From a virus (Duplodnaviria > Caudoviricetes): DNA of 54,935 nucleotides. The stretch covers positions 1-54,935 of the IMG/VR virus record IMGVR_UViG_3300025353_000003. One strand, given 5' to 3'. A program made the position numbers and the translations under genes. The notes under the pieces are model-generated. The model worked only from the letters and a program-made list of their open reading frames with translations, searched no databases and was not told the DNA's origin. Below are positions 2-54,934 of this stretch, piece by piece; position 1 is the first letter of the stretch; every line of letters begins with the position of its first letter.

Positions 2-76
2 TATTAGACCGTGGTCAACACGATAAAACCGCAGTATGTAGTCGTTGCCAAAACAGTATTCCTCAAATGCGTTCAT
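2..76 (-). CDS. partial small hypothetical protein running off the window start (MNAFEEYCFGNDY...)
   Basis: ATG at 76 overlaps the 3' end of the 63..1082 gene; frame open to the window edge (translated by hand). Confidence 0.4.
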   Translation of the reverse strand, partial: MNAFEEYCFGNDYILRFYRVDHGLI

Positions 77-1082
77 TTTCTTCTTTCAACAAATATTCAC
101 CACGGAAAGGCATTCCTGTTTCAGCAAACATACTAGCCTTTGTAGCGCGGAGTATTGGTTTAACTTCACATTCTTCTCTAAGCCAATCAGGTAGCTTGTC
201 AGCACGGATGTCTTTAAATATACCAGTGTATTGACTCATATCTCTAGAATCATACCATTTGATTCTATCCCAGCCCATATCTGCATATACTCCTGGATAC
301 CGACGACTAAAGAATCCATTCTTGAATTGACATAAACAAGACTCAAGAGTAAATCTACCAATGTCGCTATAAGTTCCGTACTCTTTTGTAAATTCCTTCA
401 AAAACTTATCAGCAGTGGATTCAAGCGTAGCACATATTTTCTCAAAGTCATAATACTTTCCGTCATGTGAATTAGGCTGACGTTTATCAAATATAAATTC
501 GTCCATGCCTAGTAGAAAGAACATGCCGTTTCGATGAGAGCGCGAACCTGAGTAATCATTAAACATTAAGTCAGTACAATCTGCCCCAAAGCCATTGATA
601 GCAACATACTCAAGGTATGAGAATGTAGACAACCGCCCAAAGCTTTTAATAGAGTTAGCAATCTCCCAATACTGAGGATAGGTTTTATTAGACCAGAGTT
701 GAGCCTGAGTACCACCTGACTCCCTAAGTATTTCAGCATAAGAGTATAGACCTGAGATAGTATCTTTCTTTTGTTTATTCCTGTCACTATCAAAAGAAAG
801 ACGAGTCCATTGGTCATTAAATACCCTGTGAGCCTCTCGCCATTCAACATTGCTCTGAGGAATAGTCGGCATGAACTCCATAATCCGCATTGATGTGATT
901 GGATTCTGAGTATGCCCATTGATTACAGCGAACCATAGAGCAGTTTCATCGTCCCAGTTTAGACGCTTTTTAAGTTCAGGCATATAACTATACACCATGC
1001 CAGGATGGCACTTGAACACAAGGTTTAGATTATATAGCGATTTAAAATACGCTAATCTATTCTCTTTGAGTCGGTAGTCCAT
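63..1082 (-). CDS. amino acid:DNA transferase (aGPT-Pplase2-like, HhH-glycosylase fold), thymidine hypermodification
   Basis: 339 aa; FGRLSTFSYLE helix-hairpin-helix-like motif and LESCLCQFK (ExxLCxxK) motif followed by RYPGVY; TS homolog, kinase and PLP enzyme in the same genome. Confidence 0.8.
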   Translation of the reverse strand: MDYRLKENRLAYFKSLYNLNLVFKCHPGMVYSYMPELKKRLNWDDETALWFAVINGHTQNPITSMRIMEFMPTIPQSNVEWREAHRVFNDQWTRLSFDSDRNKQKKDTISGLYSYAEILRESGGTQAQLWSNKTYPQYWEIANSIKSFGRLSTFSYLEYVAINGFGADCTDLMFNDYSGSRSHRNGMFFLLGMDEFIFDKRQPNSHDGKYYDFEKICATLESTADKFLKEFTKEYGTYSDIGRFTLESCLCQFKNGFFSRRYPGVYADMGWDRIKWYDSRDMSQYTGIFKDIRADKLPDWLREECEVKPILRATKASMFAETGMPFRGEYLLKEENERI

Positions 1083-2509: not shown

Positions 2510-3460
2510 TTATATTTCCTCTGTGTAAAAAGGTTCAACTATTTTCAGGCTCGGTGTTGAGCCTACAATCCAAAACAACGTACTGTCATCATAATCTAAT
2601 TGATTAGTAGACTTTAGGAACCGCCATATTTTTGCTTCATAAGTGGGATGAAAATCAATCCCGTCAAAGTTCTCGCCATTGAATTTATCCGTGTATTTAG
2701 CATACTTAGTATCATGCAATGAATGATGTTTCCATTCAAATGGGAGGTTATCCACGTCAATACCCATGATTGCGGCACGCTCGCGTATCCATTCCCACTT
2801 GCTAGGACCAATACCTACAGTATAGAGCTTTTCTACATTCTTAGGATCTTGAGATAACCCAAGTAATACACTGCAAAGAGAGTTACAAGAACCTGCAGGC
2901 ATTATGAGAGTTTTTACTTCAGCTGGAATATTCTTTGTTTGATTTGCACCAATCTGATGAAAGCCCAGAACGTCCTCAGGATGCTTTTTATGGTCGATGG
3001 TGATACCATAGTTGACCACAAGACTAGTTTCCTGCTCTAGACTGGTTACCATGCGTTGTAGCACTGGATTATATGGCGCATTGGCATACTCAAAGTGTGC
3101 ACCGAACCCAGCAGCGATCCTAGGATTATCGTGGCTCATTACAGTGTGAGGTTTAGAGTATACCACAACGCGGGTTTTTAAACCCAGATGCGCACCTACA
3201 ACAGCTGACATGCTAATCTGGGGAGATTGAACACTCGCTCCAGTTAGCACGTGGGTTTTACCCTTAGCGTTGCGAGTCATATACCAGATTAACTGACGGC
3301 ATTTAGAACCATTCGGTCCTGCATAACCTAACGGAGCAAAATAATCGTCCCGCTTGAACCAGATACCTCTATGGTTCTCAACGTCCGTTAGGTTATAGAG
3401 GTAATCCTCCCACTTGACCACTTTACGATCAAGAGAGAGTTTATCGAAGATAGTTTTCAT
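2510..3460 (-). CDS. PLP-dependent enzyme (fold type II, ACC deaminase/D-cysteine desulfhydrase-like), probably DNA-hypermodification decarboxylase
   Basis: WFKRDD...GPNGSKCRQL (PLP lysine), PAGSCNS phosphate loop, FHPTYEAK, LFWIVG; co-occurs with amino acid:DNA transferases. Confidence 0.8.
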   Translation of the reverse strand: MKTIFDKLSLDRKVVKWEDYLYNLTDVENHRGIWFKRDDYFAPLGYAGPNGSKCRQLIWYMTRNAKGKTHVLTGASVQSPQISMSAVVGAHLGLKTRVVVYSKPHTVMSHDNPRIAAGFGAHFEYANAPYNPVLQRMVTSLEQETSLVVNYGITIDHKKHPEDVLGFHQIGANQTKNIPAEVKTLIMPAGSCNSLCSVLLGLSQDPKNVEKLYTVGIGPSKWEWIRERAAIMGIDVDNLPFEWKHHSLHDTKYAKYTDKFNGENFDGIDFHPTYEAKIWRFLKSTNQLDYDDSTLFWIVGSTPSLKIVEPFYTEEI

Positions 3461-4227: not shown

Positions 4228-4229
4228 GA

Positions 4230-4930: not shown

Positions 4931-5764
4931 TTACCAGCCGTATCTGTCTGCACAGATTGGACCGATGCCACGTTCAACTGAGACTGGATCACTTAACGTG
5001 CGAGCACATACTGCGCATGATCCATATTTCTTCCCGTATGCGATTGCTGCACTGGCGGGATCACTAGCTACTGCAATAATGCGACCTTGAACCTCGTCAG
5101 TGCAATCCCGAGAGCCAAAGAACTTACCACGTAAAACTTTACCTAGGTATTGGTCACCTTCCTTAACGTATAACGCGCCTGCGTTCTGTCCTGAGGCAGG
5201 AGCAGGTGAAAAGGTAAATGTATCAAGACGCAACTTTGGACGTTGAATACCAGCAGACTGCGCTTTATTGAATGCGACCTCGATTGCTTCTACGGATACT
5301 GACGGAGCTAATGAGTCTTTCTCTGCCTTCTGCGCGGTGCGAGCCAACTCTTTAGCCACGCAATTTTGAACGGCAGCGAGTTGGCGTTCTGTTAGCGAGC
5401 CATACTTCTTGACTGAGTCATACATTGACCGTGCAAATTCAAAAGTGGCATGAGACTTCATCATCCAGTTGTACTCAGCTGGGAACTCTTTTTGAAAGTT
5501 ATGTACGGCTGTGGCTTCTTTGCGCTCTTTAGATTGACTATAAGAGTTGCGATTCTTTTCACGCTCAGTTGCGCTGGTTTTGAATTCATGAAAACCAACA
5601 CCCTTACAACTAAAGCATTGGCCAGTAAAGCTTCTGTTACTGGCGACCCAGATTCCTGTGCCAGCGCAATTTTTGCACTTTTCTTTGTAGAGGGTTACTG
5701 CTGAGTCAGACACTTTAGCGCTGACTGCAATTTCGTCTTCAGCTAGATCATATAGGCTTTGCAT
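4931..5764 (-). CDS. zinc-finger protein with C-terminal DUF6011 domain
   Basis: CKNCAGTG and CFSCKGVG (DnaJ-like CxxCxGxG); C-terminal CAVCARTLSDPVSVERGIGPICA. Confidence 0.75.
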   Translation of the reverse strand: MQSLYDLAEDEIAVSAKVSDSAVTLYKEKCKNCAGTGIWVASNRSFTGQCFSCKGVGFHEFKTSATEREKNRNSYSQSKERKEATAVHNFQKEFPAEYNWMMKSHATFEFARSMYDSVKKYGSLTERQLAAVQNCVAKELARTAQKAEKDSLAPSVSVEAIEVAFNKAQSAGIQRPKLRLDTFTFSPAPASGQNAGALYVKEGDQYLGKVLRGKFFGSRDCTDEVQGRIIAVASDPASAAIAYGKKYGSCAVCARTLSDPVSVERGIGPICADRYGW

Positions 5765-8993: not shown

Positions 8994-10426
8994 TGCCCAC
9001 TGCTCTTGATAAAATCGTAGAGGATAAACTAAAGAACGCGCCAGACTTAAACTGCTTACCCGCTCCAATGCGAGCAGCGATTAAGGCAAGACTCACATGG
9101 CTATCAATTGCAAATGCTCATCAGATTAAGCCTGCTGGGGATTGGTGGTCAATCTGGTTACTGCTCGCTGGGCGCGGTGCAGGGAAAACGAGAACGGCAT
9201 CAGAGGAGATCTGGTGGGAGGCATGGACTGAGCCTGAGACAAGATGGCTCGTATCCGCGCCCACCAGTGCAGACGTGCGAGACACCTGCTTTGAGGGTGA
9301 GTCTGGAATACTGAACGTCATACCGCAGGAGATCATCGCTCCCAACGGATATAAATCATCACTCAATGAATTGACGCTAATCAACGGATCAATCATCAAA
9401 GGTATTCCCGCCAGTGAGCCAGGACGCTTCCGTGGTCCGCAGTTTCATGGTGGCTGGTTAGATGAACTCGCAGCATGGGATTACCTTGATGAGTCATGGG
9501 ATATGATTCAGTTCGGGATGCGCCTTGGGCAACGTCCAATCCTCATCTGCACGACTACTCCAAAGCCCAAGCCACTCATTGTTGACCTAGTAAACCGAGA
9601 CGGAGATGACGTTGCGTACGTTACGGCATCAACCTATGATAACATTGATAACCTCGCTCCGACGTTCAAGAAGCAGATCCTCCAATACGAGGGTACAAAC
9701 ATCGGTCGTCAAGAGTTATATGCCGAGCTGATTGACCCTGAGGAGTCAGGCATCATCAAGCGAGACTGGTTCAAGCTCTGGCCAGCTAGTAAGCCCCTGC
9801 CTCAGTTTCAATACGTCATTCAATCGTACGACTGCGCCACAAGCGACAAAACCGCGAACGACCCGACTGCCTGCGTAGTATTAGGAATCTTTAAACCTAG
9901 CCCAGACAAGCCAATGTCCGCGATGGTTATCGACTGCTGGACCGAACACATGCAGTATCCCGAGCTGAGACCGAGGGTCGTTGAGGAGTATGCCTCAATC
10001 TATGGCGATGACGACGAATGGGGCAACGGCAAAAAGGTAGACATGGTTCTGATTGAGGATAAGTCCGCAGGCATCTCATTGATTCAGGACTTACAGCGTG
10101 CAGGTCTACCAATCCGTCCGTACAATCCTGGCATGGCGGATAAGACCCAACGCTTAAACATCGTCAGTCCAATCATCGCAAAGGGTCTGGTATATCTACC
10201 CGAGTCCACGGAGAAGAAGGGACATCCGAGGAGTTGGTGTGGTCCATTCCTCAATCAACTTTGTGCATTCCCTGAGGTTCGGCATGATGACCTTGTTGAC
10301 GCTACCAGTCAAGCTTTGAGGTATTTGAGGGATTCTGGTTGGCTCGTCACAGATTTCATTTATAATGACGAGGATAAATACGTTGATGAAACCAAACCAC
10401 GCAGGGTAAATCCATATGCCGCTTAA
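8993..10426 (+). CDS. terL: terminase large subunit
   Basis: Walker A AGRGAGKT, Walker B GWLDELAAW, coupling motif TTTPKP, nuclease motifs QSYDCA, IEDKSAG, HDDLVDATSQAL. Confidence 0.95.
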   Translation: MPTALDKIVEDKLKNAPDLNCLPAPMRAAIKARLTWLSIANAHQIKPAGDWWSIWLLLAGRGAGKTRTASEEIWWEAWTEPETRWLVSAPTSADVRDTCFEGESGILNVIPQEIIAPNGYKSSLNELTLINGSIIKGIPASEPGRFRGPQFHGGWLDELAAWDYLDESWDMIQFGMRLGQRPILICTTTPKPKPLIVDLVNRDGDDVAYVTASTYDNIDNLAPTFKKQILQYEGTNIGRQELYAELIDPEESGIIKRDWFKLWPASKPLPQFQYVIQSYDCATSDKTANDPTACVVLGIFKPSPDKPMSAMVIDCWTEHMQYPELRPRVVEEYASIYGDDDEWGNGKKVDMVLIEDKSAGISLIQDLQRAGLPIRPYNPGMADKTQRLNIVSPIIAKGLVYLPESTEKKGHPRSWCGPFLNQLCAFPEVRHDDLVDATSQALRYLRDSGWLVTDFIYNDEDKYVDETKPRRVNPYAA

Positions 10427-13400
10427 CGAGTGGGACGATAACAGCATTCCCTTACCTGAGTCGCAGGACTTGATGCGTTATGAATTAGCTCGTAAAGGTT
10501 CAATGCCTTTGCAATCAAATGGATCCGATGTACCGTTGTTACCATCCGAGGCAGCAGGTCAGTATGTACCAGTCCCAATCGAGAAACCCCAGCCGTATTC
10601 CACAGCGACAAATATCTATCAAGCAGCAGCCGATAGGTTAGGCTTGACTGCAGTGCCACAGGCTCTCATGGCAGCTATGAGTAGCTTCCCCTCTGAGGTA
10701 GCGAAGGGCATCGGTCAACCTGAGGCAAGTGCTGTCCTACAGTATCAACCGACTTCCCGCTCTGCCAATCAAATGCTTCAAGCGTATGATCAATTTCATC
10801 CCCTAGGTAGTAATATGGGAGTTGGTCCTCTGCCTGAGACATGGCAACTGCCCGCCTCACTCACAGCTAATGACCTGAGAGTAGTCGCTAAGCAGAACCT
10901 AGAACGAATTAGAGAAGCTGCACGGATTAAAGAAGATTTTCAAAATGCTCAATCAGGTATACGTCGTGAGAGCAACCTCGGAGGTAACACCTACGGAGCG
11001 AACATTCAAAGTGCAGCCGAAGGAGTGGGCGACGTACTAGCGAGTCGGCAAGCTGCAGGTAAATCAGCAATCCCAGGAATACCAGACATAATCCCCGAGA
11101 CCAATATGTACGCTGTGCGTCCAGTGGGTCAGGGTCAATACATTGAGCCGACAGACCTGCCTAATGGAACTTCAGCACTCGGTAAGGTTTACGGAAACCT
11201 CGCTAATGAGATGGCTTATGGTCTTAAATTTGAGCCTGATGCCGAATCTAGATTTCAAGATTACTATAATCACTTTTTGATGACCACTCCTGAACTTGAG
11301 CAGGCATGGCAGGACTTTGCTTCTAATAAAATCTCCGAGATGTATCCCGATGCGCCAGATGCACCCGCTGCTCGTAGTGCATTTAACATGGCATTCCCAG
11401 GAGAAGTGGGCAGTGCTGAGCGATTGAAAATGATAGAAGAATTCAGAAGCTCTCCCGAGGCAATCGAGGCTGTTCAAAAAAGAGCGGATTACCGTCAAGC
11501 CCTACATGATGAACTCTACCTACTCAAAAATGCACCACGTAAAGGATTGACAGAGTCAGAACGTGAGGTAAAGAATGAAGAAGTTGAAAAGGTAGAAAAG
11601 TTACTCTCTAAAACAAAAAGTGCCCACCTACCCACTCAAGCTGAAATAGATGAACGCATCAAGGCGATTCATCAATACCTCGGTAAAGAATTTAAGACTG
11701 ACCTTACAAAGTGGGTTGGTACGGGACAAGGTCCAATGATGGAACTCGCTAAGCGAGGTATCACTCACCTGCCAGCTAGTGAGATATTGGGTCTTAGGGT
11801 TAATGACTCTACAAGTGCTGCCTCACAAATATTAAGAGAACGAAGAACCGAAGCAGGTATGCCGAGTGAAGGATTAGCGGGACAACTCCTCAATACAAAA
11901 AACGCTGAGATTAAAACCGCTACCGATGCATTCAATAAGCTCAACAGCCGTAAGAACCAGTTGGCTATGCAGAGCCAAGCGGAACTCCCTGACACTGACC
12001 CCACTGCTAACCCAATCCTCGGTGCTGAATACAAAGAGTTGACTAACCAGATTGACAATGCTTTTCGTGCAAAGTCTAAGTTAGAAAAAGAAGCTGAGAA
12101 CCTCAAAGTAGCTCAGGCATATGAGGCATTAAATGATTTAGCATATCAACCAACCACTGCTGGACGTATGCGTAATATGCCATATGGTCAACAACAGTTC
12201 TACCCTAATCTATTTAACAAAAAAGAGGGAGAGTTTATTACTCCCAATGAAGCACCAATGTTCAATATAGAAGGCGAGCCAATTAGAGACCTCGGGTATT
12301 CACAATCTGCAAAAGCTTATACCCACGCAATCATGAATGGTGAGATTCCGTTAGACCCAAAAACTGGTAAACCTTCAGTCAAATTAGATAAGTTCATTGA
12401 AGAACATACCGCACCGCGTATACGTCAAGAAGAACGCGAGCGCATAGCTGAACGTGATAAACTCGGTAACCTCAATAAGTACATGAAGCAGGTAGTAGAT
12501 CAACTCCCAGCTGAATCTACATTCGGGAATACAAAGGCTCTTGAAATTACAGACGTAATGCCATGGGAAGATATCCGTCGTCATGTGAGCCTCGCTGGTC
12601 TTGTATTTGACCATTGCATTGCACAAAGCAACGCACCCCATCCAGGAATCAATCCATTCACAGGTCAAAAGTATACACACTCGTACCCTGTTGACCCTGT
12701 GACTGGTAAAGCTCGTCTGAATCCAGGAGAAGATGAGTCAGTTAACCATGCTAGCTCATACATGACGGGTACACGAGCAGGTGAAAAGCGTATTACAGTA
12801 CTCATGGATAAAGAGTCGGGAATGCCCGTCGGTGCAATTGAGTTTAGAGATCAAAGAGACGGCAAATTTAACCTCGGATATATGCAGGCTCATAAAACCG
12901 ACTCAATTAGCAGACCATATAGAGAAGCATTTAAGGATTACCTAAATGCGCGCTCAGATATTATCCGCGGAGCTGGCAATGACCTTTCTAAGCATGACAT
13001 AATTGATACCTCGGTAGCTGGTTGGGAGTCTAAAGCATCTCAAACCTTAGGTATCCCGAAAGCTGATATAGTTCAATTAAACCTACCGCGCTTTGTTTCT
13101 AAAGAAGATATCAAAAATGCAGCTCCCGCGCCCAGTGCTACCCTTGCTAATGTTGACACTCATGCTAGCCTAATTGCTAGAAAGAATCAGTTAGTAGATC
13201 ATATTGAAGAATACAGACATGACCTACGTGATGCCCAACGGGATGACCCAACGGATCATGAAGAACATGAACGCATTCAAGGAATGATGGATGAGGCTCG
13301 CAATCAGATTGCAGACGTTAATTCTCGCTTAGAGAATATATCCAATAATGTACGTAATGCTCCAGCTATGCCAATTGACAGATATAATCGAGATCGCATA

Positions 13401-14057
13401 CCTACTCCAAGGGATATAGCTGATGCATATCTTGATGCTCAATATACACGTAGAATTAATGGAGACTTAGCACCAAACAATCCTCCACCTGAAGGTCATA
13501 AAAAAGGTGGCATCATTCGCATGAACCAAGGTGGTACTCCCAATCCAGAAGATACCTACGGTACATTCTCTTACACTCCAGACTATTATGCTGAAGTTGC
13601 GGATAATATAAGCCCTGAAGGTCGCAGTGGGGGTTATAATGATGCAGCGCGTCATGTTCTTGCAGCTGCTGATTTGACTCGTAGAATTGAAAGTGTACCG
13701 TTAATTGGTAAATACATTGCTGACCCTATAGTGAATGCTGCTGGGCATGTACATGAATATGCCAATTATTTAGAGAATATTGGTGGTAAAAAGCCTCAAA
13801 CCATCGAGGACATGCAACAAGATCTATATAATAATGCAGTAGGTAGGAAGTTAGGTGCAGGCTCTAAAAGTTTTCAAGAAATCATAGACAGAACTCCAGC
13901 CGTGCTAGACGTAGCCCCTTACCGAAAAGAAGAAGGTAAAGTATTTGTGCGTAATCCAAATGAAGTAAAAACACCCTATAAACCATTTGGTGCATTTAAT
14001 GAGGGTGGTTCGGTTAATACTGATGACATGCGTTACGAATTATTAAGGAAGAACTAA
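10416..14057 (+). CDS. large multidomain (polyvalent-like) virion-associated protein
   Basis: 1213 aa; coiled coils; PcfJ-like segment (DHCIAQ...ITVLMDKESGMPVGAIEF); C-terminal DAARH...HE...DLYNNAVGR domain; KKGG motifs. Confidence 0.6.
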   Translation: MPLNEWDDNSIPLPESQDLMRYELARKGSMPLQSNGSDVPLLPSEAAGQYVPVPIEKPQPYSTATNIYQAAADRLGLTAVPQALMAAMSSFPSEVAKGIGQPEASAVLQYQPTSRSANQMLQAYDQFHPLGSNMGVGPLPETWQLPASLTANDLRVVAKQNLERIREAARIKEDFQNAQSGIRRESNLGGNTYGANIQSAAEGVGDVLASRQAAGKSAIPGIPDIIPETNMYAVRPVGQGQYIEPTDLPNGTSALGKVYGNLANEMAYGLKFEPDAESRFQDYYNHFLMTTPELEQAWQDFASNKISEMYPDAPDAPAARSAFNMAFPGEVGSAERLKMIEEFRSSPEAIEAVQKRADYRQALHDELYLLKNAPRKGLTESEREVKNEEVEKVEKLLSKTKSAHLPTQAEIDERIKAIHQYLGKEFKTDLTKWVGTGQGPMMELAKRGITHLPASEILGLRVNDSTSAASQILRERRTEAGMPSEGLAGQLLNTKNAEIKTATDAFNKLNSRKNQLAMQSQAELPDTDPTANPILGAEYKELTNQIDNAFRAKSKLEKEAENLKVAQAYEALNDLAYQPTTAGRMRNMPYGQQQFYPNLFNKKEGEFITPNEAPMFNIEGEPIRDLGYSQSAKAYTHAIMNGEIPLDPKTGKPSVKLDKFIEEHTAPRIRQEERERIAERDKLGNLNKYMKQVVDQLPAESTFGNTKALEITDVMPWEDIRRHVSLAGLVFDHCIAQSNAPHPGINPFTGQKYTHSYPVDPVTGKARLNPGEDESVNHASSYMTGTRAGEKRITVLMDKESGMPVGAIEFRDQRDGKFNLGYMQAHKTDSISRPYREAFKDYLNARSDIIRGAGNDLSKHDIIDTSVAGWESKASQTLGIPKADIVQLNLPRFVSKEDIKNAAPAPSATLANVDTHASLIARKNQLVDHIEEYRHDLRDAQRDDPTDHEEHERIQGMMDEARNQIADVNSRLENISNNVRNAPAMPIDRYNRDRIPTPRDIADAYLDAQYTRRINGDLAPNNPPPEGHKKGGIIRMNQGGTPNPEDTYGTFSYTPDYYAEVADNISPEGRSGGYNDAARHVLAAADLTRRIESVPLIGKYIADPIVNAAGHVHEYANYLENIGGKKPQTIEDMQQDLYNNAVGRKLGAGSKSFQEIIDRTPAVLDVAPYRKEEGKVFVRNPNEVKTPYKPFGAFNEGGSVNTDDMRYELLRKN

Positions 14058-17118: not shown

Positions 17119-17541
17119 ATGACTTTTGATGTAGAACAAACGCTGCAAGAAGCATTTCCTGCAGTTGATCCAATGATCACACCCTTTGGTGCTCGCGTAC
17201 TAGTTCAGCTACGTGCCGTCAAAGAAAAAGTATCCAGCGCGGGTATATTACTCCCGTCTGAAACCAAAGAAACTGAAAAATGGAATACCCAAATCGGCAA
17301 AGTTCTAGCCGTTGGTCCTATTGCATTTAAACAGCGAGATACTAGTGAACCATGGCCAGAAGGCGCATGGGCTGAAGTCGGTGACTTCGTCCGTGTAGTT
17401 AAATGGGGTGGTGACCGATGGGAGGTCGACTATGTTGATGAAAATGGTTTGAATGGTAAGGCTCTATTTACCTTCTTTAACGACCATGAGTTAATCGGCA
17501 AAGTTACAGGGGATCCTCGTGCAATTAAAGCGTTCATTTAA
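17119..17541 (+). CDS. groES: GroES/Cpn10-like co-chaperonin
   Basis: PFGARVLVQ...SAGILLP...GKVLAVGP...VGDFV Cpn10 pattern; AAGGAG RBS. Confidence 0.8.
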   Translation: MTFDVEQTLQEAFPAVDPMITPFGARVLVQLRAVKEKVSSAGILLPSETKETEKWNTQIGKVLAVGPIAFKQRDTSEPWPEGAWAEVGDFVRVVKWGGDRWEVDYVDENGLNGKALFTFFNDHELIGKVTGDPRAIKAFI

Positions 17542-23294: not shown

Positions 23295-24353
23295 ATGTCT
23301 ACCTCTGGAACTGTTTCACAAACAGTCGTTAGCGTTCAAGACCTCATAGATCACGGTGCTCGCCGTGCGGGTAAGCTCGCTGAGGAACTCACCGTAGAAC
23401 AAGTAAGCGCTGCTAAAACCAGCCTCTATTACCTTCTATCAAGTCTTACTAATTGGGGTATTAATTACTGGGCAATTAATAAGTATGTTACGGGGCTAAT
23501 CCCAGATCAGGCTTATTATACTTTACCAGTTGGAACTGTGGATGTCCTAAATGCAAATTATAGAACTACTACAAATATTACTTCTGGAGCTTATAGTACT
23601 TCAGGGACTGTTGCTAATGCATTTGATGGTGTTGGACAAAGTATCTGCCAACTCACCACAAACACAGGCGCTATTGGTATCAACAATGGTTCAGGCAATC
23701 CTGTTTATATTAACACTGTAGGTATTTTATGTGCAGTTACAGGGTCGGTAACCATTCAGATTCAAGCTTCAGCAAATGGTTCTACTTGGACTTCAGTAGC
23801 ATCTCCTGGAGCTATTAATTGGGTAGCGGGTACGTGGTTATATTATGACCTGCCTACTACTGAGACTCAACCTTATTGGCGTATTCAACAGATCTCTGGT
23901 GTGAATATGGGTGTAAATCAAGTGCAATTTGGTACAATGCCTATTGCAATACCGATGGCTCGTATGAACAGAGATGATTACTCAAATCTACCAAACAGAC
24001 AATTTCAGTCACTCAGACCATTGCAATATTGGTTTAATCGTACAATCCCACAGCCGAATATGGAAGTCTGGCCAGTGCCTAATTCTATTCAGCCTCAGAT
24101 TGAACTCTGGTTAAATCGATACATTCAAGACGTAGGAGATTTGAATGGTGAAATTGAGATTCCGCAATACATGTATTTAGCGGTACAGTGGGGATTGGCT
24201 CACCAGATGGCATGTGAATTGCCTCAGGTGGACCCACAGCGCATGGTATATTGCGAACAGCAATACGAAAAACACCTACTCATGGCTCAAAATGAAAACC
24301 GCGATAAATCGCCTATTTATTTTGCACCGAATATTTCAGCATACACCAGATGA
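23295..24353 (+). CDS. head-tail adaptor-like protein with inserted discoidin/F5-8-like domain
   Basis: Helical N- and C-termini (LTNWGINYW, RMNRDDYSNLPN, VWPVP) around a beta insert (NAFDG...IQASANGSTWT...YWRI). Confidence 0.55.
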   Translation: MSTSGTVSQTVVSVQDLIDHGARRAGKLAEELTVEQVSAAKTSLYYLLSSLTNWGINYWAINKYVTGLIPDQAYYTLPVGTVDVLNANYRTTTNITSGAYSTSGTVANAFDGVGQSICQLTTNTGAIGINNGSGNPVYINTVGILCAVTGSVTIQIQASANGSTWTSVASPGAINWVAGTWLYYDLPTTETQPYWRIQQISGVNMGVNQVQFGTMPIAIPMARMNRDDYSNLPNRQFQSLRPLQYWFNRTIPQPNMEVWPVPNSIQPQIELWLNRYIQDVGDLNGEIEIPQYMYLAVQWGLAHQMACELPQVDPQRMVYCEQQYEKHLLMAQNENRDKSPIYFAPNISAYTR

Positions 24354-24964
24354 ATTATTCTAAAGTATATTCTCAACTTATAACACGCGCTCAATTGCGC
24401 GGGAAAGTTGACGGATATAAAGAACGCCATCACATTATGCCAAAAGCATTGGGAGGTTTAGATTCTAAAGAAAATTTAGTTGAATTAACATCTCGTGAGC
24501 ATTTTATAGCTCACATGCTTTTAGCGCACATTTACGGTAAATACATGTGGTATGCTGTTGTTAAAATGGTTGGTCAAAACCCGTATATGAACAGTAGGTT
24601 GTATTCAATAGCTAGAGAAAAATATTCAGAAGTTTTGAAAGGTAATAAATTTAGTAAAGGTGTTGTTCATAATTCTAAAACTAGATTAAAAATGTCTGAT
24701 TCTCAGAAAAAAGCAGCTCCATTGAGAGAAAAATCTATAGCTGAAAAAAGAACTTTAGATCCTGAATATGATAAATTAATATTTGAAAAACGCTCTTATG
24801 CGACTAGTTGTAGAAAAGAAGGTTATCAAAAGAAATCTGGACTTGAATTTAAACGCCGTTTTAATTCTGATCCTGAATATGCAAAACGTATTTCTGAAAA
24901 CAGAAGGCGGGCAGCTATGGCAAGCCATGAGGCTTTAAGACAAAAAAGGCTTTTAAATGCCTAA
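24350..24964 (+). mobile_element. free-standing HNH homing endonuclease (NUMOD3-type tail)
   Basis: YKERHHIMPKALGGLDSKENLVELTSREHFIAHMLL; HNSKTRLKMS NUMOD3-like motif; AT-rich; overlaps both neighbours. Confidence 0.85.
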
Positions 24965-25325
24965 ATTCTTAAACACCCTAGGTAATAACGTATTGAGTGT
25001 TTTCGTATGTGATAGATGCCATATGAAGAGACCCTATTCAGATATGCGCTCTGACGGTAATATCCCCGCTATTAAAGTTTGTTCTGAATCGTGTTCAGAT
25101 TCTCTGGATCCTTATAGGCTTCCCGCTAGACAACCTGAGAAAATTTCAATCAGATTTCCGCGCCCAGATGCTGACATTGCAGAGTATAATGACGCTATTA
25201 CGACTGATCCTAACGTCGTAAATACCCCTAACAATGTAACACAAGGTACTGCTGGAGAATACGGTATTGCACCTGAAACTTCAGAAGATGATATTGACGG
25301 AAACTTGGATTCATTAGCGCCATGA
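24957..25325 (+). CDS. Cys-rich (CxxC...CxxxC) hypothetical late protein
   Basis: VCDRC...KVCSESCSDSLDPYRLP...RFPRPD. Confidence 0.7.
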   Translation: MPKFLNTLGNNVLSVFVCDRCHMKRPYSDMRSDGNIPAIKVCSESCSDSLDPYRLPARQPEKISIRFPRPDADIAEYNDAITTDPNVVNTPNNVTQGTAGEYGIAPETSEDDIDGNLDSLAP

Positions 25326-25936
25326 ACGATTCTTTTGTATATTCTTGGTCAGACCATAAAACCTCTAAGGTGTATGTAGGGGTTCATAAAGGTTCTGATG
25401 ATGACGGTTACATTTGTTCTTCTAAGTATATGCTTAAAGAATACAAAGAAAGACCGCAAGATTTCACTCGTCAAATTATTGCCAAAGGCGCATGGAAAGA
25501 TTGCATCACTTTTGAAAAGAAAATCAATGAACAACTTATAAAGTCTATTGATACAACTTACAATCGTCACGCTTTTCCAGCGATTGTAAATGAAATTCAC
25601 CCTATGTTGGGTAAAAAACATTCTGAACAAACTAAAACTAAATGGATCGGAAGAAAACATACCGATGAAGTTTTGAAGAAAATAGGTTCAAAATTAAAAG
25701 GTAGAGTTTCTCCTAGAAAAGGCGTTACCCTTTCTGATGAAACAAAAGCTAAAATTAGTCAAAACAGCTTTTGGAAAAATAAAACTGGTCCGAATGCGGG
25801 CAGAAAATTTTCAGAAGAAGCTAAAAAGAACATGAGTATATCTGCTTTGAATAAAGCACCTATATCAGAACAAACCCGATTAAAATTGAGCGAATCTAGT
25901 AAGCTCTCTTGGAAAAAACGAAAAGGCATTCTATGA
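25322..25936 (+). mobile_element. free-standing GIY-YIG homing endonuclease with NUMOD3 repeats
   Basis: FVYSW...KVYVGVHKG...YICSS; repeated GKKHSEQTK / GRKHTDEV / LSDETKAKIS motifs. Confidence 0.85.
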
Positions 25937-49046: not shown

Positions 49047-49358
49047 TTAAAAGTTTAAATAAACTGCAAAGTACTGAAAGGTTCGGCTGTCAAACTGCAA
49101 CAACTTAATCTCATGGCCAGGACTATTTTGCGCTAATACTCCAACGCACACTGCCGACAACTTAGGATCCCCAATCATGCAGAGATAATCACCTTCTTGA
49201 AAATCCTTTAGAGCTTCCCGTGCATGTGCCACAGGATCATCATAAATCGTATTAGTAAATACGTGCTCAATTTCTCCAAAACGAGCAGCATCTTTAATAG
49301 TCTTACCTTGGGAGTTATCTACTACCCATACGACACTAGGTTCTATTTCATCATTCAT
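49047..49358 (-). CDS. hypothetical protein (alpha/beta)
   Basis: 103-aa ORF with AAAGGAAA RBS; DYLCMIGDP motif. Confidence 0.7.
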   Translation of the reverse strand: MNDEIEPSVVWVVDNSQGKTIKDAARFGEIEHVFTNTIYDDPVAHAREALKDFQEGDYLCMIGDPKLSAVCVGVLAQNSPGHEIKLLQFDSRTFQYFAVYLNF

Positions 49359-49383: not shown

Positions 49384-51147
49384 TTATAAAAAGCGCGTAG
49401 CGCCAATGTCGTTTATTGTTTTCATTATAGCTGAAAAATACCAGTCATAGTTCAAATCAGTTGGTATATTTTTAGGTAATACCATACACTCTCGTGCTCC
49501 ATCAGTCTTTGCTACTTTATTGCCGTTTGTTGCATAAGTAATTGGAGGTAACTTTTCTTTTGTTTGATACCATCTAACTGTTCTACCGAGGTATTTATCC
49601 CCTTGCACTCCACCACCTGTTACTCCTCTTACGCTAATGAAGTTCGTTAATGCTGAGTTCATAACTGTTTCTTTAAACTCAGTTCCGTATGCCAACCAAT
49701 TGGCAACTGCTTTAGACACTATAGGTGCGGTTGGGTTCTTACTGAGATTGATTTCACTATAGATACCTTTAATTTTTACAGAGCGGTCTTGCTTTACTGC
49801 AAAGTAATTATTAACGTCTTTAAGAGCTACTACTCTATACGGAGTTGACTCAAAGCTAAAACCTGTTGATTTACTAAATTGAGCTATGATCTCATGAACC
49901 TTTGTGACTTCATTTCTTTTATGTTTAAGCATTATGCCGTCAGTATTGGCAGAAACAACCTGAACTCCGTTATCTTCTAAAGTTTCAATAAGGCTCAATA
50001 GAGTTAACTGCCCAGTGAGGACAATGTTAAGCATGACATCAGGTGAATACAAGACAGAATACTTACTAGCAGTTTTACCGAATGTACCATTCAATGCAAT
50101 CCGCAATGAATCTGCAATTACCATGTTCTTTTGACGTTTACCCTCTAACCGCCTCTCAAAGACTTTACGATACTCCTCAATAAATCTGCTACCAGTATTA
50201 GCGGGAACAAGATTACAATTAAGCAAAATAGAGGGGTAATAACTAGATACGTCATAATCCACAATCTGGTAGGTGTCATCCGTGACATAGCAAACCTTTC
50301 TATCATGTTGCGAGTGTAAACCACCTACACCCATTTGGTAGATACCACTGTTTATCTTAACGAGGTCGTCCTTCAAGAAGTCAGGCAGTACCACGTGACC
50401 ACTTGTAGCCTTTACCTCGTACACGTGCTCAGACATCCGTTTTACCAGCTGCTTTAAGCCTTCATTTTTGAAATTGATAAAGCTGGGAGTAATGTATCGA
50501 ACTGATTTAGGAATCTGCACATTACCGCGCTTTAACCCTAACTTTTTGATGAACATCTGTTCAGCTACTTGAGAGTCAGATTTAGATCGTGCATCAAACC
50601 CGTATTCCTTGCTAATCTCAACTCTAAGCTGGAGTTGCCCCTGCAGGCGATTGTAAAGCTCTTCTGTAGTGTCTAAGTCATTCTTACAATACTCTGCAAT
50701 CATCTTATGATCGGCTGGATCAATCATAGCAGAATGATGAAAAGGTAAATCTTGAAGGGTAGGCATGTTCATACGAGCACCATATGTCTTTAGGCTTACA
50801 AAACTAGGCGCGACTTCTATTAAGTCAATATGATCTATCAAAGGCATCTTAAACCCAAATTGACGTTCAGCATCCCAAGCCATCAAATTATCACCAATTA
50901 TCTTATCGCCTAACTTTTTACAATCAAGGATTGAATTACCCGCCATAAAGTAACTTACGATAGGCATATCAAATCTCATACCATTAAAGCTAATGAATGT
51001 ATTCTTAGACTTGAATAGATCTTTGAGTTGAATGCGAGCATCTTCCTCCTGCCCCCAGATCTCAAAATATGTTTGGCTCTCAAGAATCTTACCCATCAAT
51101 AAAAACAGATTAGGGGCAAGTTCTATATCGAAAACAATTGTACTCAT
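49384..51147 (-). CDS. family B DNA polymerase
   Basis: Exo I FDIE, Exo II FNGMRFD, Exo III YCKNDL; motif A YDVSSYYP, motif B RIALNGTFGK, motif C SANTDG. Confidence 0.9.
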   Translation of the reverse strand: MSTIVFDIELAPNLFLLMGKILESQTYFEIWGQEEDARIQLKDLFKSKNTFISFNGMRFDMPIVSYFMAGNSILDCKKLGDKIIGDNLMAWDAERQFGFKMPLIDHIDLIEVAPSFVSLKTYGARMNMPTLQDLPFHHSAMIDPADHKMIAEYCKNDLDTTEELYNRLQGQLQLRVEISKEYGFDARSKSDSQVAEQMFIKKLGLKRGNVQIPKSVRYITPSFINFKNEGLKQLVKRMSEHVYEVKATSGHVVLPDFLKDDLVKINSGIYQMGVGGLHSQHDRKVCYVTDDTYQIVDYDVSSYYPSILLNCNLVPANTGSRFIEEYRKVFERRLEGKRQKNMVIADSLRIALNGTFGKTASKYSVLYSPDVMLNIVLTGQLTLLSLIETLEDNGVQVVSANTDGIMLKHKRNEVTKVHEIIAQFSKSTGFSFESTPYRVVALKDVNNYFAVKQDRSVKIKGIYSEINLSKNPTAPIVSKAVANWLAYGTEFKETVMNSALTNFISVRGVTGGGVQGDKYLGRTVRWYQTKEKLPPITYATNGNKVAKTDGARECMVLPKNIPTDLNYDWYFSAIMKTINDIGATRFL

Positions 51148-51410
51148 TAGTCTTGATTTATGTAACGTGAAGTTGGCTCACCTGAACAATCATCAAGAGA
51201 AGTGGGGTACTCCAATTCAATTAACTTCTCAATAAAATGAATAGACTTGTTTAAATCTTCTAGACCATTCTTTTCATGATATCGTTCTAGGTACTTAGTA
51301 GCGCATCCGACAAAGTAGCCCCTACCGTATAAGCGATAGATTCTATCCCAATGTTGCTCACCATTTACCTTATAATGTCTACCGCCCACCTGCTTGTCAT
51401 TTGCTGACAT
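51147..51410 (-). CDS. DUF3310 (T7 gp1.7-like nucleotide kinase) protein
   Basis: QVGGRHYK...GCATKYLERYHEKNGLEDLNKSIHFIEKLIE; ATG 51410. Confidence 0.75.
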   Translation of the reverse strand: MSANDKQVGGRHYKVNGEQHWDRIYRLYGRGYFVGCATKYLERYHEKNGLEDLNKSIHFIEKLIELEYPTSLDDCSGEPTSRYINQD

Positions 51411-52380
51411 TTTTCTTCTCCCTGTTTGCAATATAAAGATGCGTTGCTAATTTCCAATCTGAAGCGATGATCTTGTCTGCCCATGCTCTGCCGTCACTAA
51501 TTTTATACTTACGCTCATGCGATACCATCGCCATCGGATGAGCCACATATGTGAAGAATTCGTTTATATATCCCTGATTACTGAATGGATCTTTGCAGAA
51601 CTCCTCACACTCATGCAGGAACAATTCAGATGACCCCTCATACAGCTTTCTAGGTTGTACCACCCCACTTGAGTAATGATCAAAATTCTCAGCAATTGGA
51701 GGGTTCTCCATATACGGCATCGCGTTATATAACTCAGTATAAAGATGAAGATTATTTGAAATTGAATAATACCGACCGACAGGTAGTTCAAGTGCAACAG
51801 CAACAAACTCTTGAATTACAGAGAAGTGAACAGGATTTGCACCACATGCCCCCCACCAGAAATCATTACTCCTATTATTGATAGTTATGTCTAAACGACC
51901 ATCATTGATAGCAAAGATTAACTGAGTATTACAGGCTTTATCCTTAGTACTCTTATTGAAATCACTTGAATCCCAAAGTTGAATGACCGCTTGACGAGAG
52001 TTAGGATCTTCTTTTAGATGCTTGATCACCTCATTCAATTGGTCAAATCCAAAATGCTTACGCATTCTATACCCATAAGCAGCATTAAAGCGTACTCCAT
52101 CATCTGAGAATTGACCTATAGTAGAATTAAATTGTTTTAGAAACAATACATCATCCCGACCAGCTAGCATCCAGATACTCTCCATAAGATGAAAAATAGG
52201 ATTGGCATCGCGCTCCTGAAAAAACAGTACGCGTTCAGTAGGCTCTTGAATAATTGTTAATACAGGCTCATTAATCCTATAAGCTTTGCCATTGCGAGTC
52301 TCTACCAATTTGCCAGCTACTTTAAAGCGCCAGAGTGTGTCCGTGAATAATTCATTGACGTTTATGGAACATATCTCCAT
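51397..52380 (-). CDS. thymidylate synthase homolog, likely dUMP hydroxymethylase
   Basis: TRNG, NPIFHLMESIWMLAG, FSDDG, AYGYR, SRQAVIQLWD, KDKACN (catalytic Cys), RSNDFWWGACGAN (Asn = dUMP type), NLHLY. Confidence 0.85.
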   Translation of the reverse strand: MEICSINVNELFTDTLWRFKVAGKLVETRNGKAYRINEPVLTIIQEPTERVLFFQERDANPIFHLMESIWMLAGRDDVLFLKQFNSTIGQFSDDGVRFNAAYGYRMRKHFGFDQLNEVIKHLKEDPNSRQAVIQLWDSSDFNKSTKDKACNTQLIFAINDGRLDITINNRSNDFWWGACGANPVHFSVIQEFVAVALELPVGRYYSISNNLHLYTELYNAMPYMENPPIAENFDHYSSGVVQPRKLYEGSSELFLHECEEFCKDPFSNQGYINEFFTYVAHPMAMVSHERKYKISDGRAWADKIIASDWKLATHLYIANREKKNVSK

Positions 52381-52382
52381 TA

Positions 52383-53243
52383 TTAGAACTCCTGTGTTGT
52401 TTTATATAACTGCCGTGGTTTACCTTCACCTTTATCTACTCTAATATATTTATCATACTCGCACATGATATTTTGACAATCATGCAGGGTTAAATCTGCC
52501 AACTTTGAATTGCTGTTAATTAGTTTACCTCGCACTTCTATCAACTCAGAATTGAATTGTTCCTGAGTTAAATTCTTTGTTAAAGTGCGATTATGCAATC
52601 TATTTAAACCGCGCTTACTTCCTGGACCGATTGGTGCCCACGTGCATAGATCCTTAGCGTTCATCAGTTGACCCATTATGTAAGTCAAATCTGCTGAGAC
52701 TTGACCAGCTAGGAATGTTTTTATACCGAACGATTGTGATAGTACAGTAGTCACTTCTTCTATTGAGTCATTGCTGATTGCTTTACGTATATCATTTGCA
52801 AAGAATACAGTTGGGTTAATGATGTAAGAAGTAAGATTTGCAGCTTTTGTGGCACCGACTACGTTGGTTGGGTAGACTACGTAAGCTGAACTATACATCT
52901 TCTCCCCTTTTAAACGTAGAATATCCAATTGCTTTATAAATTCATCACCATCAAATTCCTCTACCCGATTGACAATTAGTTTTTTGTCCATTAGGTACTG
53001 TAGGGTTGGTGGCCAATTTATCAATCTAGCAATTAAAGCCTTAAACCATACATCCCCGACGTTGTTGGTATAATAGTTCTTGAGTAACCACTTTGTAACG
53101 CGGTCATCGCGCCTACGAATATTGCAGAACCGATATTTGTTTATAATAGGATCCATTGTCAATAAGCCAAAGTTCGCCTCTTTATTTAAGCGTACCTGTT
53201 CCCGCTCATTAGCGAAGTAAATCAAAGTATCAAAGAGTTCCAT
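52383..53243 (-). CDS. aGPT-Pplase1-like (clade 1) amino acid/amine:DNA transferase
   Basis: EREQVR...TMDPIINKYRFCNIRRRDDRVT, INWPPTL, FLAGQVSADL, GPGSKRGL, DCQNIMCEYDKYIR. Confidence 0.85.
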   Translation of the reverse strand: MELFDTLIYFANEREQVRLNKEANFGLLTMDPIINKYRFCNIRRRDDRVTKWLLKNYYTNNVGDVWFKALIARLINWPPTLQYLMDKKLIVNRVEEFDGDEFIKQLDILRLKGEKMYSSAYVVYPTNVVGATKAANLTSYIINPTVFFANDIRKAISNDSIEEVTTVLSQSFGIKTFLAGQVSADLTYIMGQLMNAKDLCTWAPIGPGSKRGLNRLHNRTLTKNLTQEQFNSELIEVRGKLINSNSKLADLTLHDCQNIMCEYDKYIRVDKGEGKPRQLYKTTQEF

Positions 53244-53821
53244 TTTCAGCTTTCTTAAGTATGTTTAATGTCTCATCAAAAGCATTGGTATGGTCAATCG
53301 TTATGATCTTTACTCCCCCCGCTTTATGTAAGTTCATACACGCATCATACGTAGACTTATGCGCACTTATCGTGTTCTTTGGATTAAAGGGTTTATCTTC
53401 TCCCCTGCTATCCCTGCGAGTTTGCACTCTCTGTAAACATACTGCCAATGGGGTATCGAGGATTGCCGCAACGTATGCACCAGTGGGCTTGAGCATCTGT
53501 GTTGTGATTGCTCCTGGACCCACTTTTGAGAGGAGTAAACCTTCAAGCAGAACATGACCCCTAGGATAAGCAGCCAAGGCTCTATCTGCAATTTCTTCTT
53601 GAGTACTGATACCATCTGTACCTCCACAAGTATTTTCGTATGATCCTATCACATATAGAGGTTGGCTCAGCCCTTCACTTGAGAGGTCAACTTCATATCC
53701 CCAATGCTTTTTAGGCTTGATAGTCAGGCAGAATCTTTGCAGGGTAATCCGTCAGAAATTTACGGGCAACAGTGGTCTTACCTGAGCCTGACGTACCGCG
53801 TAAAGATAGAATGACATTCAT
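53230..53821 (-). pseudogene. P-loop 5-hydroxymethyluracil DNA kinase-like gene, split by a frameshift near 53720
   Basis: Hand translation from ATG 53821: MNVILSLRGTSGSGKTTVARK (Walker A), stop at 53711; adjacent frame continues IKPKKHWGY...VIGSYENTCGGTDG...LLEGLL...CLQRVQTRR into ORF 53230..53652. Confidence 0.8.
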
Positions 53822-53866
53822 GCTATTTCCTTTATTGGATTATTGAGAAACAATTATAACCTACTT

Positions 53867-54016
53867 TCATTTCTCTTGTGCCTTTTTTAATAAAGCCTGT
53901 AATTCTTTAACTGTAAGCTCATTTACCAACTTTACTTTTGGCTTGCATTTATGTGGCTTGACATCAAAAACATCAAGAAGAGCATCGCATTTACCGCAAG
54001 ATATTCTCATTGTCAT
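53867..54016 (-). CDS. small CxxC protein ending KAQEK (49 aa)
   Basis: Hand-translated MTMRISCGKCDALL...LLKKAQEK; starts in one repeat and ends in the next. Confidence 0.65.
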   Translation of the reverse strand: MTMRISCGKCDALLDVFDVKPHKCKPKVKLVNELTVKELQALLKKAQEK

Positions 54017-54198
54017 TTCTCTTGTGCCTTTCCCATTGGTTCAATCGTTACTGTTTCCCATTTAACTTCACCAGTCTTTGCGTTTTTCCATCCATGCTTT
54101 GTGTAGGTAGCTGGATAAATACAAGATGGATGCCAATCAAGTCTAGTTTCTTGCACCGCCACAACTTCTAAGTCGGTCTGCATATCTTTAAGGTTCAT
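54013..54198 (-). CDS. small hypothetical protein ending KAQEK (61 aa)
   Basis: Start at the ATG of repeat 54195-54213; end in repeat 54013-54031. Confidence 0.65.
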   Translation of the reverse strand: MNLKDMQTDLEVVAVQETRLDWHPSCIYPATYTKHGWKNAKTGEVKWETVTIEPMGKAQEK

Positions 54199-54214
54199 TT
54201 CTCTTGTGCCTTTC

Positions 54215-54430
54215 TTAAATTTCATCGGGGTCAAACCCCTTAGATTTCAACCAGTTATCAAGCAATTCATGTGCTTCGTCCTCTAATCCAACTGGCACTC
54301 TGCGTTCTACATAGGTGGTGTCAGGGTTTTGAAATTCAGGCTTAACTGGAAATGTAACATTCATATCTGCTATATCAAACTTAACAGATTGCCCTTCACC
54401 TTTTGGTATTGCTTTTCCAAAATCATTCAT
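54215..54430 (-). CDS. small hypothetical protein (71 aa)
   Basis: Starts at the ATG in repeat 54427-54445; stops 1 nt before the next repeat. Confidence 0.65.
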   Translation of the reverse strand: MNDFGKAIPKGEGQSVKFDIADMNVTFPVKPEFQNPDTTYVERRVPVGLEDEAHELLDNWLKSKGFDPDEI

Positions 54431-54753
54431 TTCTCTTGTGCCTTTCTTAGTATTGCTCTAGCAAAACTTGTGCTGTCAAACCAATCAACATATTGATGAA
54501 CAGTAGCTTCTTGTTCTATTTCTTCATCAGTAAGTTCTTCTTTTAAAAAGCATGGGCTATCTTTTCTATGCACAGTATTGAGTGCTGAAGGTTCTCCACA
54601 AGCACAAAGTAGTGTCTTTGCTGAATGGGTGTAGAGTGGAATAACGCTTTTCCATGAAACATCAGGTTTGGCTAACCCTTTGCCATTCATAATGAAGCTA
54701 ATATCCTCATCATCTTCTACCATCCACGCTACTGGTTCATTAGTTTCCATCAT
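54427..54753 (-). CDS. hypothetical protein (EPVAW...IPLYTH...LTDEEI...FARAILRKAQEK)
   Basis: 108 aa; short motifs typical of small mosaic phage proteins. Confidence 0.7.
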   Translation of the reverse strand: MMETNEPVAWMVEDDEDISFIMNGKGLAKPDVSWKSVIPLYTHSAKTLLCACGEPSALNTVHRKDSPCFLKEELTDEEIEQEATVHQYVDWFDSTSFARAILRKAQEK

Positions 54754-54934
54754 CTAACCTTTGCATTAGTATTTTCAAACAAACATCTTTTTCTTTAATC
54801 TGTTCTTTCATGCTTTCTATTTCAGCTTGTTGCTGGCGTAGCATCATCCTATTAAACTCATCACGTTTGCATAAAGCGGCAATTCTGTTTGCGTCAGATT
54901 GGTTTTCATAAAAAGCATCTTCTTCAGCTTTACA
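54740..54934 (-). CDS. partial hypothetical protein (…MLRQQQAEIE…), 5' end outside the window
   Basis: Hand-translated open frame from the window end to TAA 54740-54742. Confidence 0.55.
   Translation of the reverse strand, partial: CKAEEDAFYENQSDANRIAALCKRDEFNRMMLRQQQAEIESMKEQIKEKDVCLKILMQRLDDGN

Follow-up and report, generated by a model that had tools for sequence, protein, structure and literature searches.

The stretch of DNA described here, IMG/VR virus record IMGVR_UViG_3300025353_000003, is the near-complete genome of an uncultivated freshwater phage (Duplodnaviria; Caudoviricetes) whose 54,935 bases we analyzed as a whole and refer to as the window; it comprises the entire record, which is linear and has a CheckV completeness of 98%. 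We propose that it carries one contiguous gene cluster for the hypermodification of thymidine, and we regard this cluster, with the mechanism outlined below, as the likely best explanation of the data. The encoded proteins make it highly probable that the pathway is of the kind that proceeds through 5-hydroxymethyldeoxyuridine (5-hmdU), a kind that is well established (Iyer 2013; Lee 2018, 2021; PMC5889632, PMC8989533). In its sequence relationships, the cluster is a mosaic: the kinase, the aGPT-Pplase1 protein (Pplase1), the thymidylate synthase (TS) homolog and the DUF3310 protein are of the type found in phages M6 and PaMx11, the amino-acid:DNA transferase (AADT) and the pyridoxal-phosphate (PLP)-dependent enzyme are of the type found in phage ViI, and the polymerase is unrelated to those of M6 and PaMx11. 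A 5hmU-based hypermodification had been suggested in an initial annotation of this DNA; it is now supported by homology to bench-characterised enzymes, by catalytic residues, by a fold match to the PaMx11 enzyme PUGT and by the conservation of the cluster. All seven genes of that annotation, a contiguous minus-strand group and the genes for the AADT and the PLP enzyme, are present according to open reading frames (ORFs), Pfam and PHROGs, and the profile scores lie far outside the range of chance:

2510..3460, minus strand: PLP-dependent enzyme, homolog of ViI gp226 (phrog_3650, E 5e-88)
63..1082, minus strand: amino-acid:DNA transferase (aGPT-Pplase2/AADT; PF18724, E 2.3e-12, 47.6 bits, cut-off 26.2)
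53230..53821, minus strand: predicted 5-hmdU DNA kinase (P-loop), its frame broken in the window (Walker A; homology of an intact relative)
52383..53243, minus strand: aGPT-Pplase1 (Pfam 'HMUDK_hel'; PF18723, E 1.9e-38, 132.9 bits, cut-off 25)
51397..52380, minus strand: TS homolog, predicted dUMP hydroxymethylase (PF00303, E 7.8e-21; phrog_5131, E 6.8e-103)
51147..51431, minus strand: DUF3310 protein (PF11753, 25.4 bits, cut-off 24)
49384..51147, minus strand: DNA polymerase, family-B-like (phrog_1252, E 1.6e-160)

The transferase and the PLP enzyme had been annotated at the other end of the window. The two window ends are the halves of a single cluster, split by the ends of the linear contig. 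Among 25 related loci in IMG/VR (Pplase1 identity 60-65%), the AADT gene lies directly upstream of the kinase gene in 21, and the remaining four start at or after the kinase. The relatives have the order PLP enzyme, small ORFs, AADT, kinase, Pplase1, TS, DUF3310 and polymerase on one strand, and the window, once circularised, has the same order with four extra small ORFs between AADT and kinase. These ORFs (54013-54934, minus strand; 73, 71, 108 and at least 64 codons) occupy the AADT-kinase gap of the circular order; no Pfam match was found for the three complete ones that were scanned, and the three of the four that were compared with the 25 related loci have no counterpart there. The start of the Pplase1 gene overlaps the kinase stop by 14 nucleotides. 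The PLP gene (72% identity) recurs in four of the five larger relatives, one of them a record of 58,381 bases with an estimated completeness of 100%; the larger relative that lacks it is a 54% fragment.

The features of the TS homolog fit a dUMP hydroxymethylase. Its nearest cultured relatives are PaMx11 gp51 (41% identity) and M6 gp58 (40%), both over the full length, and among solved structures it matches the CMP 5-hydroxymethylase MilA best (5b6d; E 9.8e-23), with ThyA (about 3e-12) ten orders of magnitude worse. The RSND motif of the Asn type, pointed out in the initial annotation, is borne out: R170-S171-N172-D173 and N182 align with RSCD...N of ThyA, and C150 with its nucleophile. Asn182 corresponds to an Asn in ThyA and to an Asp in the cytosine-specific MilA. 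The protein is also 30% identical to the product of an SH-Ab 15599 gene annotated as deoxyuridylate hydroxymethyltransferase (DUHM_BPSP1-like), and 15599 carries a 5hmdU-derived base.

For the kinase, we used the intact gene of the related locus L007, whose downstream part has 90% identity to the window. In BLASTP, this protein is 34% identical to PaMx11 gp49 over 192 residues (full length; E 2.5e-26); its identity to M6 gp54 is 31% (E 1.3e-10). The Walker A motif GSGKT is kept, and downstream motifs are common to the L007 kinase and PaMx11 gp49. The kinase also matches phrog_800 (E 1.2e-9), which is annotated 'terminase small subunit', a label that the records of M6 gp54 and PaMx11 gp49 bear as well. 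A complex prediction for kinase and Pplase1 from paired alignments scored 0.00; it gave no verdict and counts neither for nor against binding.

Pplase1 is 30% identical to M6 gp55 (BLASTP, E 5.7e-32) and has near-length homologs in 959 clusters. Its AlphaFold2 model (predicted local distance difference test, pLDDT, 91.6) has a helix-hairpin-helix (HhH) glycosylase-like fold, and PUGT is its top structural match at Z 11.6, not separated from DUF2419 and Ogg glycosylases (Z about 10). A profile-profile comparison with Pplase2 gave a probability of 0.2% and no meaningful alignment. The doubt that the proteins might fall outside the aGPT-Pplase families is settled by the bit scores of PF18723 (132.9) and PF18724 (47.6). 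The transferase role initially assigned to Pplase1, on the other hand, needs correction: no transferase activity of Pplase1 has been demonstrated, and M6 gp55 was dispensable in reconstitution. Two further observations concern this protein. A 1020-residue metagenomic protein (P0271), known from a single gene call, fuses Pplase1 to a family-A polymerase (PF00476), a hint at a possible action of Pplase1 at the replication fork; it was the sole match among longer Pplase1 proteins, and no kinase fusion was seen, in a word-based search that is weak for long proteins. In L007, Pplase1 and the TS homolog are separated by an inserted HNH/NUMOD3 homing endonuclease (6211-6879).

The AADT is 28% identical to the serine:DNA transferase gp247 of ViI (BLASTP, E 8e-24) and has no BLASTP match to the glycine transferases M6 gp51 and PaMx11 gp46. 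Structures and mutagenesis of Pplase2 enzymes have shown that a Glu-Thr pair binds a divalent metal and that a Cys four residues after the Glu attacks C6 (PMC11472151, PMC13458397); the motif is E243/T244/C247 in PaMx11 (PMC11472151) and E222/T223/C226 in SH-Ab 15599 (PMC13458397). In the window protein, E247-S248-C249-L250-C251 aligns with this published E-T-x-x-C motif, with Ser replacing Thr, and across 39 aligned homologs the conservation of both E247 and C251 is at least 90%. A phmmer search against the sequences of the PDB returned nothing meaningful, and PUGT was found by fold search only: with the AlphaFold2 model (mean pLDDT 95.7), Foldseek placed PaMx11 PUGT first (probability 1.00, E about 0.1), and VIA-align superimposed the model on PUGT (8z2m) with Z 17.6 and a root-mean-square deviation of 3.4 Å over 250 residues; HhH glycosylases come next, at Z 8.5. 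The alignment of the substrate pocket (15599 positions 227-243) shifts by one or two residues between runs and shows just that the window protein differs from all characterised types. As a separate observation, several metagenomic AADT homologs are fused to a Tet_JBP dioxygenase, a P-loop kinase (including HMUD2) or PALP (P0010, P0013, P0019, P0021, P0022, P0032, P0041), and one fused homolog of this set carries an intein with an HNH endonuclease.

The PLP enzyme is clearly of the ViI type, with 36% identity (374 alignment columns; BLASTP, E 3.7e-68) to gp226, which decarboxylates the amino-acid:thymine adduct; similarity to M6 gp52 is not significant (E 0.078 or worse), and the Pfam PALP profile stays below its cut-off (23.1 versus 35 bits). 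The predicted Schiff-base lysine, K53, aligns with K92 of ViI and K36 of M6, and, unlike the window protein, gp226 has an N-terminal extension and about 60 additional residues inserted internally. In tblastn, it matches 348 phage records, mostly of Ackermannviridae. A six-frame search of the window found no Radical_SAM domain, with a control that was positive in 14 of 14 genomes. The decarboxylation step requires a free alpha-amine (PMC8989533). Since no radical-SAM isomerase is there to unmask such an amine, the amino acid is most likely attached via its side chain.

The DUF3310 protein is 49% identical to M6 gp61 (BLASTP), which precedes the polymerase in M6, the same place that the stand-alone protein takes here, although the polymerase families differ. 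The genes compared for DUF3310 are those at 51147-51431 of the window, at 9845-10231 of L027 and at 2167-2757 of L037. The nucleotide kinase gp1.7 of T7 carries a C-terminal DUF3310 (residues 122-184, E 4.5e-23); the link is the shared Pfam domain only, as a direct BLAST comparison with the window protein was not significant (E 0.13). Judging from this domain, the protein may be a nucleotide-kinase-related accessory that serves the phosphorylation of 5-hmdUMP.

The polymerase had been annotated as family B, and this classification remains plausible by sequence. Its sole sequence match in the PDB, via residues 327-463, is 1s5j (E 9.4e-7), which is titled 'DNA polymerase I' and which we take to be an archaeal family-B enzyme, and the match to phrog_1252 stands beside it; the profile DNA_pol_B_exo2, however, reaches 22.4 bits against a cut-off of 24. 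The protein is 37-40% identical to diverse siphovirus polymerases, annotated variously as polymerase B, polymerase II or simply 'DNA polymerase', and shows no BLAST similarity to the polymerases of M6 and PaMx11.

From these components, the following pathway can be proposed; each of its steps is inferred from homology, and the functions of the reference enzymes are those given in Table 1 and sections of PMC8989533. The TS homolog would convert dUMP to 5-hmdUMP, which host kinases, possibly with the DUF3310 protein, would raise to the triphosphate, so that the phage polymerase could put 5-hmdU into DNA. The P-loop kinase would then add a single phosphate to the hydroxymethyl group on DNA, yielding 5-PmdU. 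The initial annotation had spoken of pyrophosphorylation at this point, which does not agree with Lee et al. (2021), where the 5-HMU DNA kinase places one phosphate on the base (PMC8989533). Pplase1 would probably aid in the handling of the DNA or the base. In the AADT, Cys251 would attack C6, assisted by a divalent metal held by E247 and S248; the phosphate would leave, and a free amino acid would join the exocyclic methylene. Finally, the PLP enzyme would use K53 to strip the carboxyl group from the attached amino acid, which presupposes attachment via the side chain. With serine as donor, O-serinyl-T would become 5-(2-aminoethoxy)methyl-dU (5-NeOmdU). This is our best single guess for the product, because both tailoring enzymes are ViI-type and a radical-SAM isomerase is absent; as an exact assignment from sequence, it is tentative.

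Several observations weigh against this reading. Identity to characterised enzymes is just 28-41% behind every step of the pathway, and the window sequence as deposited encodes a broken kinase. The profile searches by which the initial annotation was to be checked placed PF18723, PF18724 and DUF3310 above their cut-offs, but not the kinase profile PF18748 (5-HMUDK), which reached 20.1 bits for the window piece and 23.3 bits for the intact relative against a cut-off of 27. A six-frame Pfam search that found its positive controls detected no HD hydrolase, dCMP deaminase, MazG or dUTPase in the window; by comparison, genes for an HD hydrolase and a dCMP deaminase occur in M6 and PaMx11, and one for a MazG-like enzyme in ViI. 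The complete replacement of T by 5hmU, as initially annotated, is thus unsupported by gene content, because enzymes that clear dTTP or dUTP and a dCMP deaminase were not found, and replacement in the phage DNA may be partial. As to the product, the best matches of the AADT in cultured phages are uncharacterised mycobacteriophage proteins (35% identity), and the residue after the catalytic Cys, W in ViI, K in the glycine type and G in the diamine type, is a Q that is invariant in the window lineage. A specificity of the AADT for serine is not established by its sequence.

The last points lead to the reading that competes most seriously with 5-NeOmdU, namely an unchanged pathway with another donor in place of serine, such as threonine, homoserine, cysteine or a side-chain-attached diamino acid, which would yield an undescribed hypermodified thymidine. 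Beyond the low identity to gp247 and the invariant Q, which is unlike every characterised type, it is favored by the distance of the AADT, which would fall outside the ViI cluster at the E 1e-50 cut-off of a published similarity network, and by the finding that two pocket residues suffice to switch the donor in a related enzyme (PMC13458397). Moreover, a search of 1.84 billion proteins retrieved 164 AADT representatives at E <= 1e-3, and none of the full-length ones exceeds 48% identity. Its partner, however, is clearly a gp226-type PLP enzyme, a pairing that makes 5-NeOmdU in ViI, and no other specific donor has positive evidence in its favor. We therefore consider a non-serine donor possible, if doubtful. 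The more specific proposal, that the AADT clade, which is conserved in a freshwater phage lineage of wide distribution and shares less than 30% identity with every characterised transferase, attaches a non-serine amino acid via its side chain and, with the gp226-like decarboxylase, produces an undescribed thymidine hypermodification, appears rather unlikely. A separate observation concerns a sister sublineage (L002-L006) that has a 2OG-Fe(II) oxygenase (PF13640, 29.5 bits, cut-off 27; 2468-3049 in L002) between AADT and kinase. The 3 kb upstream of the AADT in L004 show no PLP gene, and no Pfam match was found for the L004 ORFs at 1301-1816 and 1964-2701. The tailoring chemistry of this sublineage may differ, and with an oxygenase beside the transferase and no PLP gene seen nearby, it may form yet another derivative.

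The annotated kinase gene is present with its Walker A motif but is not a single open frame in the window: an ATG at 53821 opens a frame of 36 codons that contains the motif and ends with a stop at 53711-53713, and the remainder runs in a second frame (53751-53230). If this interruption behind Walker A were real, the system would be dead, no 5-PmdU would be formed and the DNA would contain at most 5-hmdU or plain T. We consider this very improbable. A DNA alignment with the relatives places a gap of two nucleotides in the window directly behind 53722, and we aligned assembled contigs from four studies of freshwater metagenomes (one run each) to 53300-54100. One run (X3) has no cover at 53722; all three covering runs (X1, X2 and X4, one of which may be the source sample of the window) have an extra 'GG' (plus strand) behind this position, are otherwise identical to the window and have the frame restored. 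Likewise, the frame is open through the site in all 24 relatives that have sequence upstream of Pplase1, 23 of them full-length (196-197 codons) and one cut by a contig end. Because all covering runs carry both bases and all of these relatives read through, we attribute the frameshift to the deposited contig, as an assembly error or a minor variant, and not to the population. In addition, the downstream part of the kinase is otherwise undamaged, and its identity to many relatives is 86-90%. The two missing bases matter to anyone who would clone the gene, as a kinase taken from the deposited record would be a dead enzyme.

The same contigs show a further peculiarity upstream of the kinase. Many short contig pieces of high depth begin or end at 53861-54100, and joints in runs X2 and X3 skip about 122-126 bases (from 53885 to about 54010), as if the kinase were separated from the small upstream ORFs by an element that varies or is shared.

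We give almost no credence to the view that the TS homolog is an ordinary thymidylate synthase and that the kinase and HhH proteins act on a target other than 5-hmdU, for example in nucleotide salvage and DNA repair, without any hypermodification. In its favor, the kinase stays under the 5-HMUDK cut-off and also matches the generic AAA_33 (29.4 bits), and the folds of the Pplases are similar to those of DNA glycosylases. Against it, the E-value of the TS homolog is ten orders of magnitude better with MilA than with ThyA, the nearest cultured relatives of this homolog come from phages that derive modified bases from 5-hmdU, the AADT keeps the Cys and the metal motif of 5-PmdU transferases and prefers PUGT (Z 17.6) over glycosylases (Z 8.5), and five genes travel together across the relatives.

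Among the characterised systems, the 5-NeOmdU pathway of the Salmonella phage ViI (Kuttervirus) comprises the 5-HMUDKs gp67/gp243, the serine:DNA transferase gp247, the PLP decarboxylase gp226 and the Pplase1 protein gp160 (PMC8989533). Like ViI, the window has a kinase, a Pplase1, a Pplase2 and a PLP enzyme and lacks a radical-SAM enzyme, and the PLP lysine and the E-[TS]-x-x-C region are conserved between the two. ViI, however, is a 157-kb myovirus with two kinases and scattered genes, whereas the 55-kb window has one kinase and a single cluster, and the kinase, Pplase1 and TS homolog of the window are not ViI-like (gp243, E 0.018; gp160, E 5e-7).

These proteins and the DUF3310 protein instead have their closest characterised relatives (30-49% identity) in the Mesyanzhinovviridae siphoviruses of Pseudomonas, M6 (5-NedU) and PaMx11 (5-AcNmdU), which share the core order of AADT, tailoring genes, kinase, Pplase1, TS and, further on, DUF3310 and polymerase. 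The AADT and the PLP enzyme of the window, by contrast, are not of the glycine type (no BLAST match), and the window has none of the gp51-type AADT, gp52-type PLP enzyme and gp53-type radical-SAM enzyme that make up the M6-type 5-NedU pathway. Also absent are an FAD lyase, an acetyltransferase, an HD hydrolase and a dCMP deaminase, and both the polymerase family and the virion module differ.

More distant parallels exist to the Acinetobacter phage SH-Ab 15599 (alpha-dapT) and to phiW-14 (putrescinyl-T), which likewise use a dUMP hydroxymethylase, a 5-HMUDK and a Pplase2 with a catalytic Cys and metal ligands (PMC13458397); the Pplase1 of 15599 is 30% identical to that of the window. Their transferases take diamines directly and need no PLP decarboxylase. 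The pocket residues differ, with G227/D238 in 15599 and Q and R/Y in the window.

The initial annotation had set the podovirus-like architecture of this phage against characterised examples that are myo- and siphoviruses. The short-tailed setting is already known, however, from a 2022 description of HTVC023P-type Podoviridae that have TS and aGPT-Pplase1 (PMC9599517). In these pelagiphages, whose portal proteins are 32-33% identical to that of the window, the two genes are 'partner AMGs' that adjoin the polymerase gene, as they do here, and both lineages are known mostly from metagenomes (PMC9599517). The pelagiphages differ from the window in having TS and Pplase1 only, beside PolA, as described in PMC9599517, whereas the window adds the kinase, the AADT, the PLP enzyme and a family-B-like polymerase and belongs to a freshwater lineage. 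The novelty of the present cluster is thus modest: it consists in the full set of five genes in a freshwater lineage and in the particular mosaic of M6/PaMx11-type and ViI-type components. Lee et al. (2021) found homologs of 5-HMUDK on 352 contigs of IMG/VR2 and 713 of GOV2.0 and spoke of 'combinatorial permutations' of the genes (PMC8989533), and the mosaic provides a concrete example of the modular gene pool they proposed. DNA that is modified in such ways resists restriction enzymes, a known anti-restriction strategy, and can bias sequencing; the transferases are also of interest as tools for DNA labelling.

In the remainder of the genome, plus-strand genes between about 6 and 45.5 kb encode a primase/helicase-like protein, the large terminase subunit, the portal, head and tail proteins and an M23-peptidase protein. 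On the minus strand, the genes at both ends have replication, recombination and nucleotide functions and include, in addition to the polymerase, a DUF669 protein, a Sak4-like protein, a Cas4-like exonuclease and a RuvC-like resolvase. There are no tRNA genes. The portal is related in sequence to those of HTVC023P-type podoviruses and of the Caulobacter 'Riverwalk' phages, with 46.5% identity to Caulobacter phage RW and 32-33% to the pelagiphages HTVC023P/HTVC027P. A PHROGs scan of 30 ORFs of the structural region, many of which have no match, found no sheath or tube family and just one match of 70 residues to a tape-measure family.

No near-identical genome was found when 49384-53821 was compared with 50,697 phage records by megablast. 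Metagenomes of fresh water and lakes contain the lineage: in 16 studies, 20 runs have at least part of an 801-base test stretch, and nine of these runs have half or more of its sampled words.

A few other genes deserve mention. Close to the cluster, a DUF932 early gene (3457-4263, E 9.4e-24) overlaps with its stop the start of the PLP gene, and another early gene (4931-5764) encodes a DUF6011 protein; at the other end, a Pam3_gp32-like protein (49047-49358) adjoins the polymerase. Between terminase and portal, an ORF of 1213 codons (10416-14057) has no PHROG match at 1e-5 and a weak DUF6973 match near its C-terminus, and a gene between portal and head genes (17119-17541) matches a GroES-like co-chaperonin (phrog_3188, E 9.8e-9). 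Lastly, the structural module contains two homing-endonuclease genes, at 24350-24964 (phrog_655, E 1.8e-44) and 25322-25936 (phrog_314, E 3.3e-13), with an ORF of 122 codons between them.

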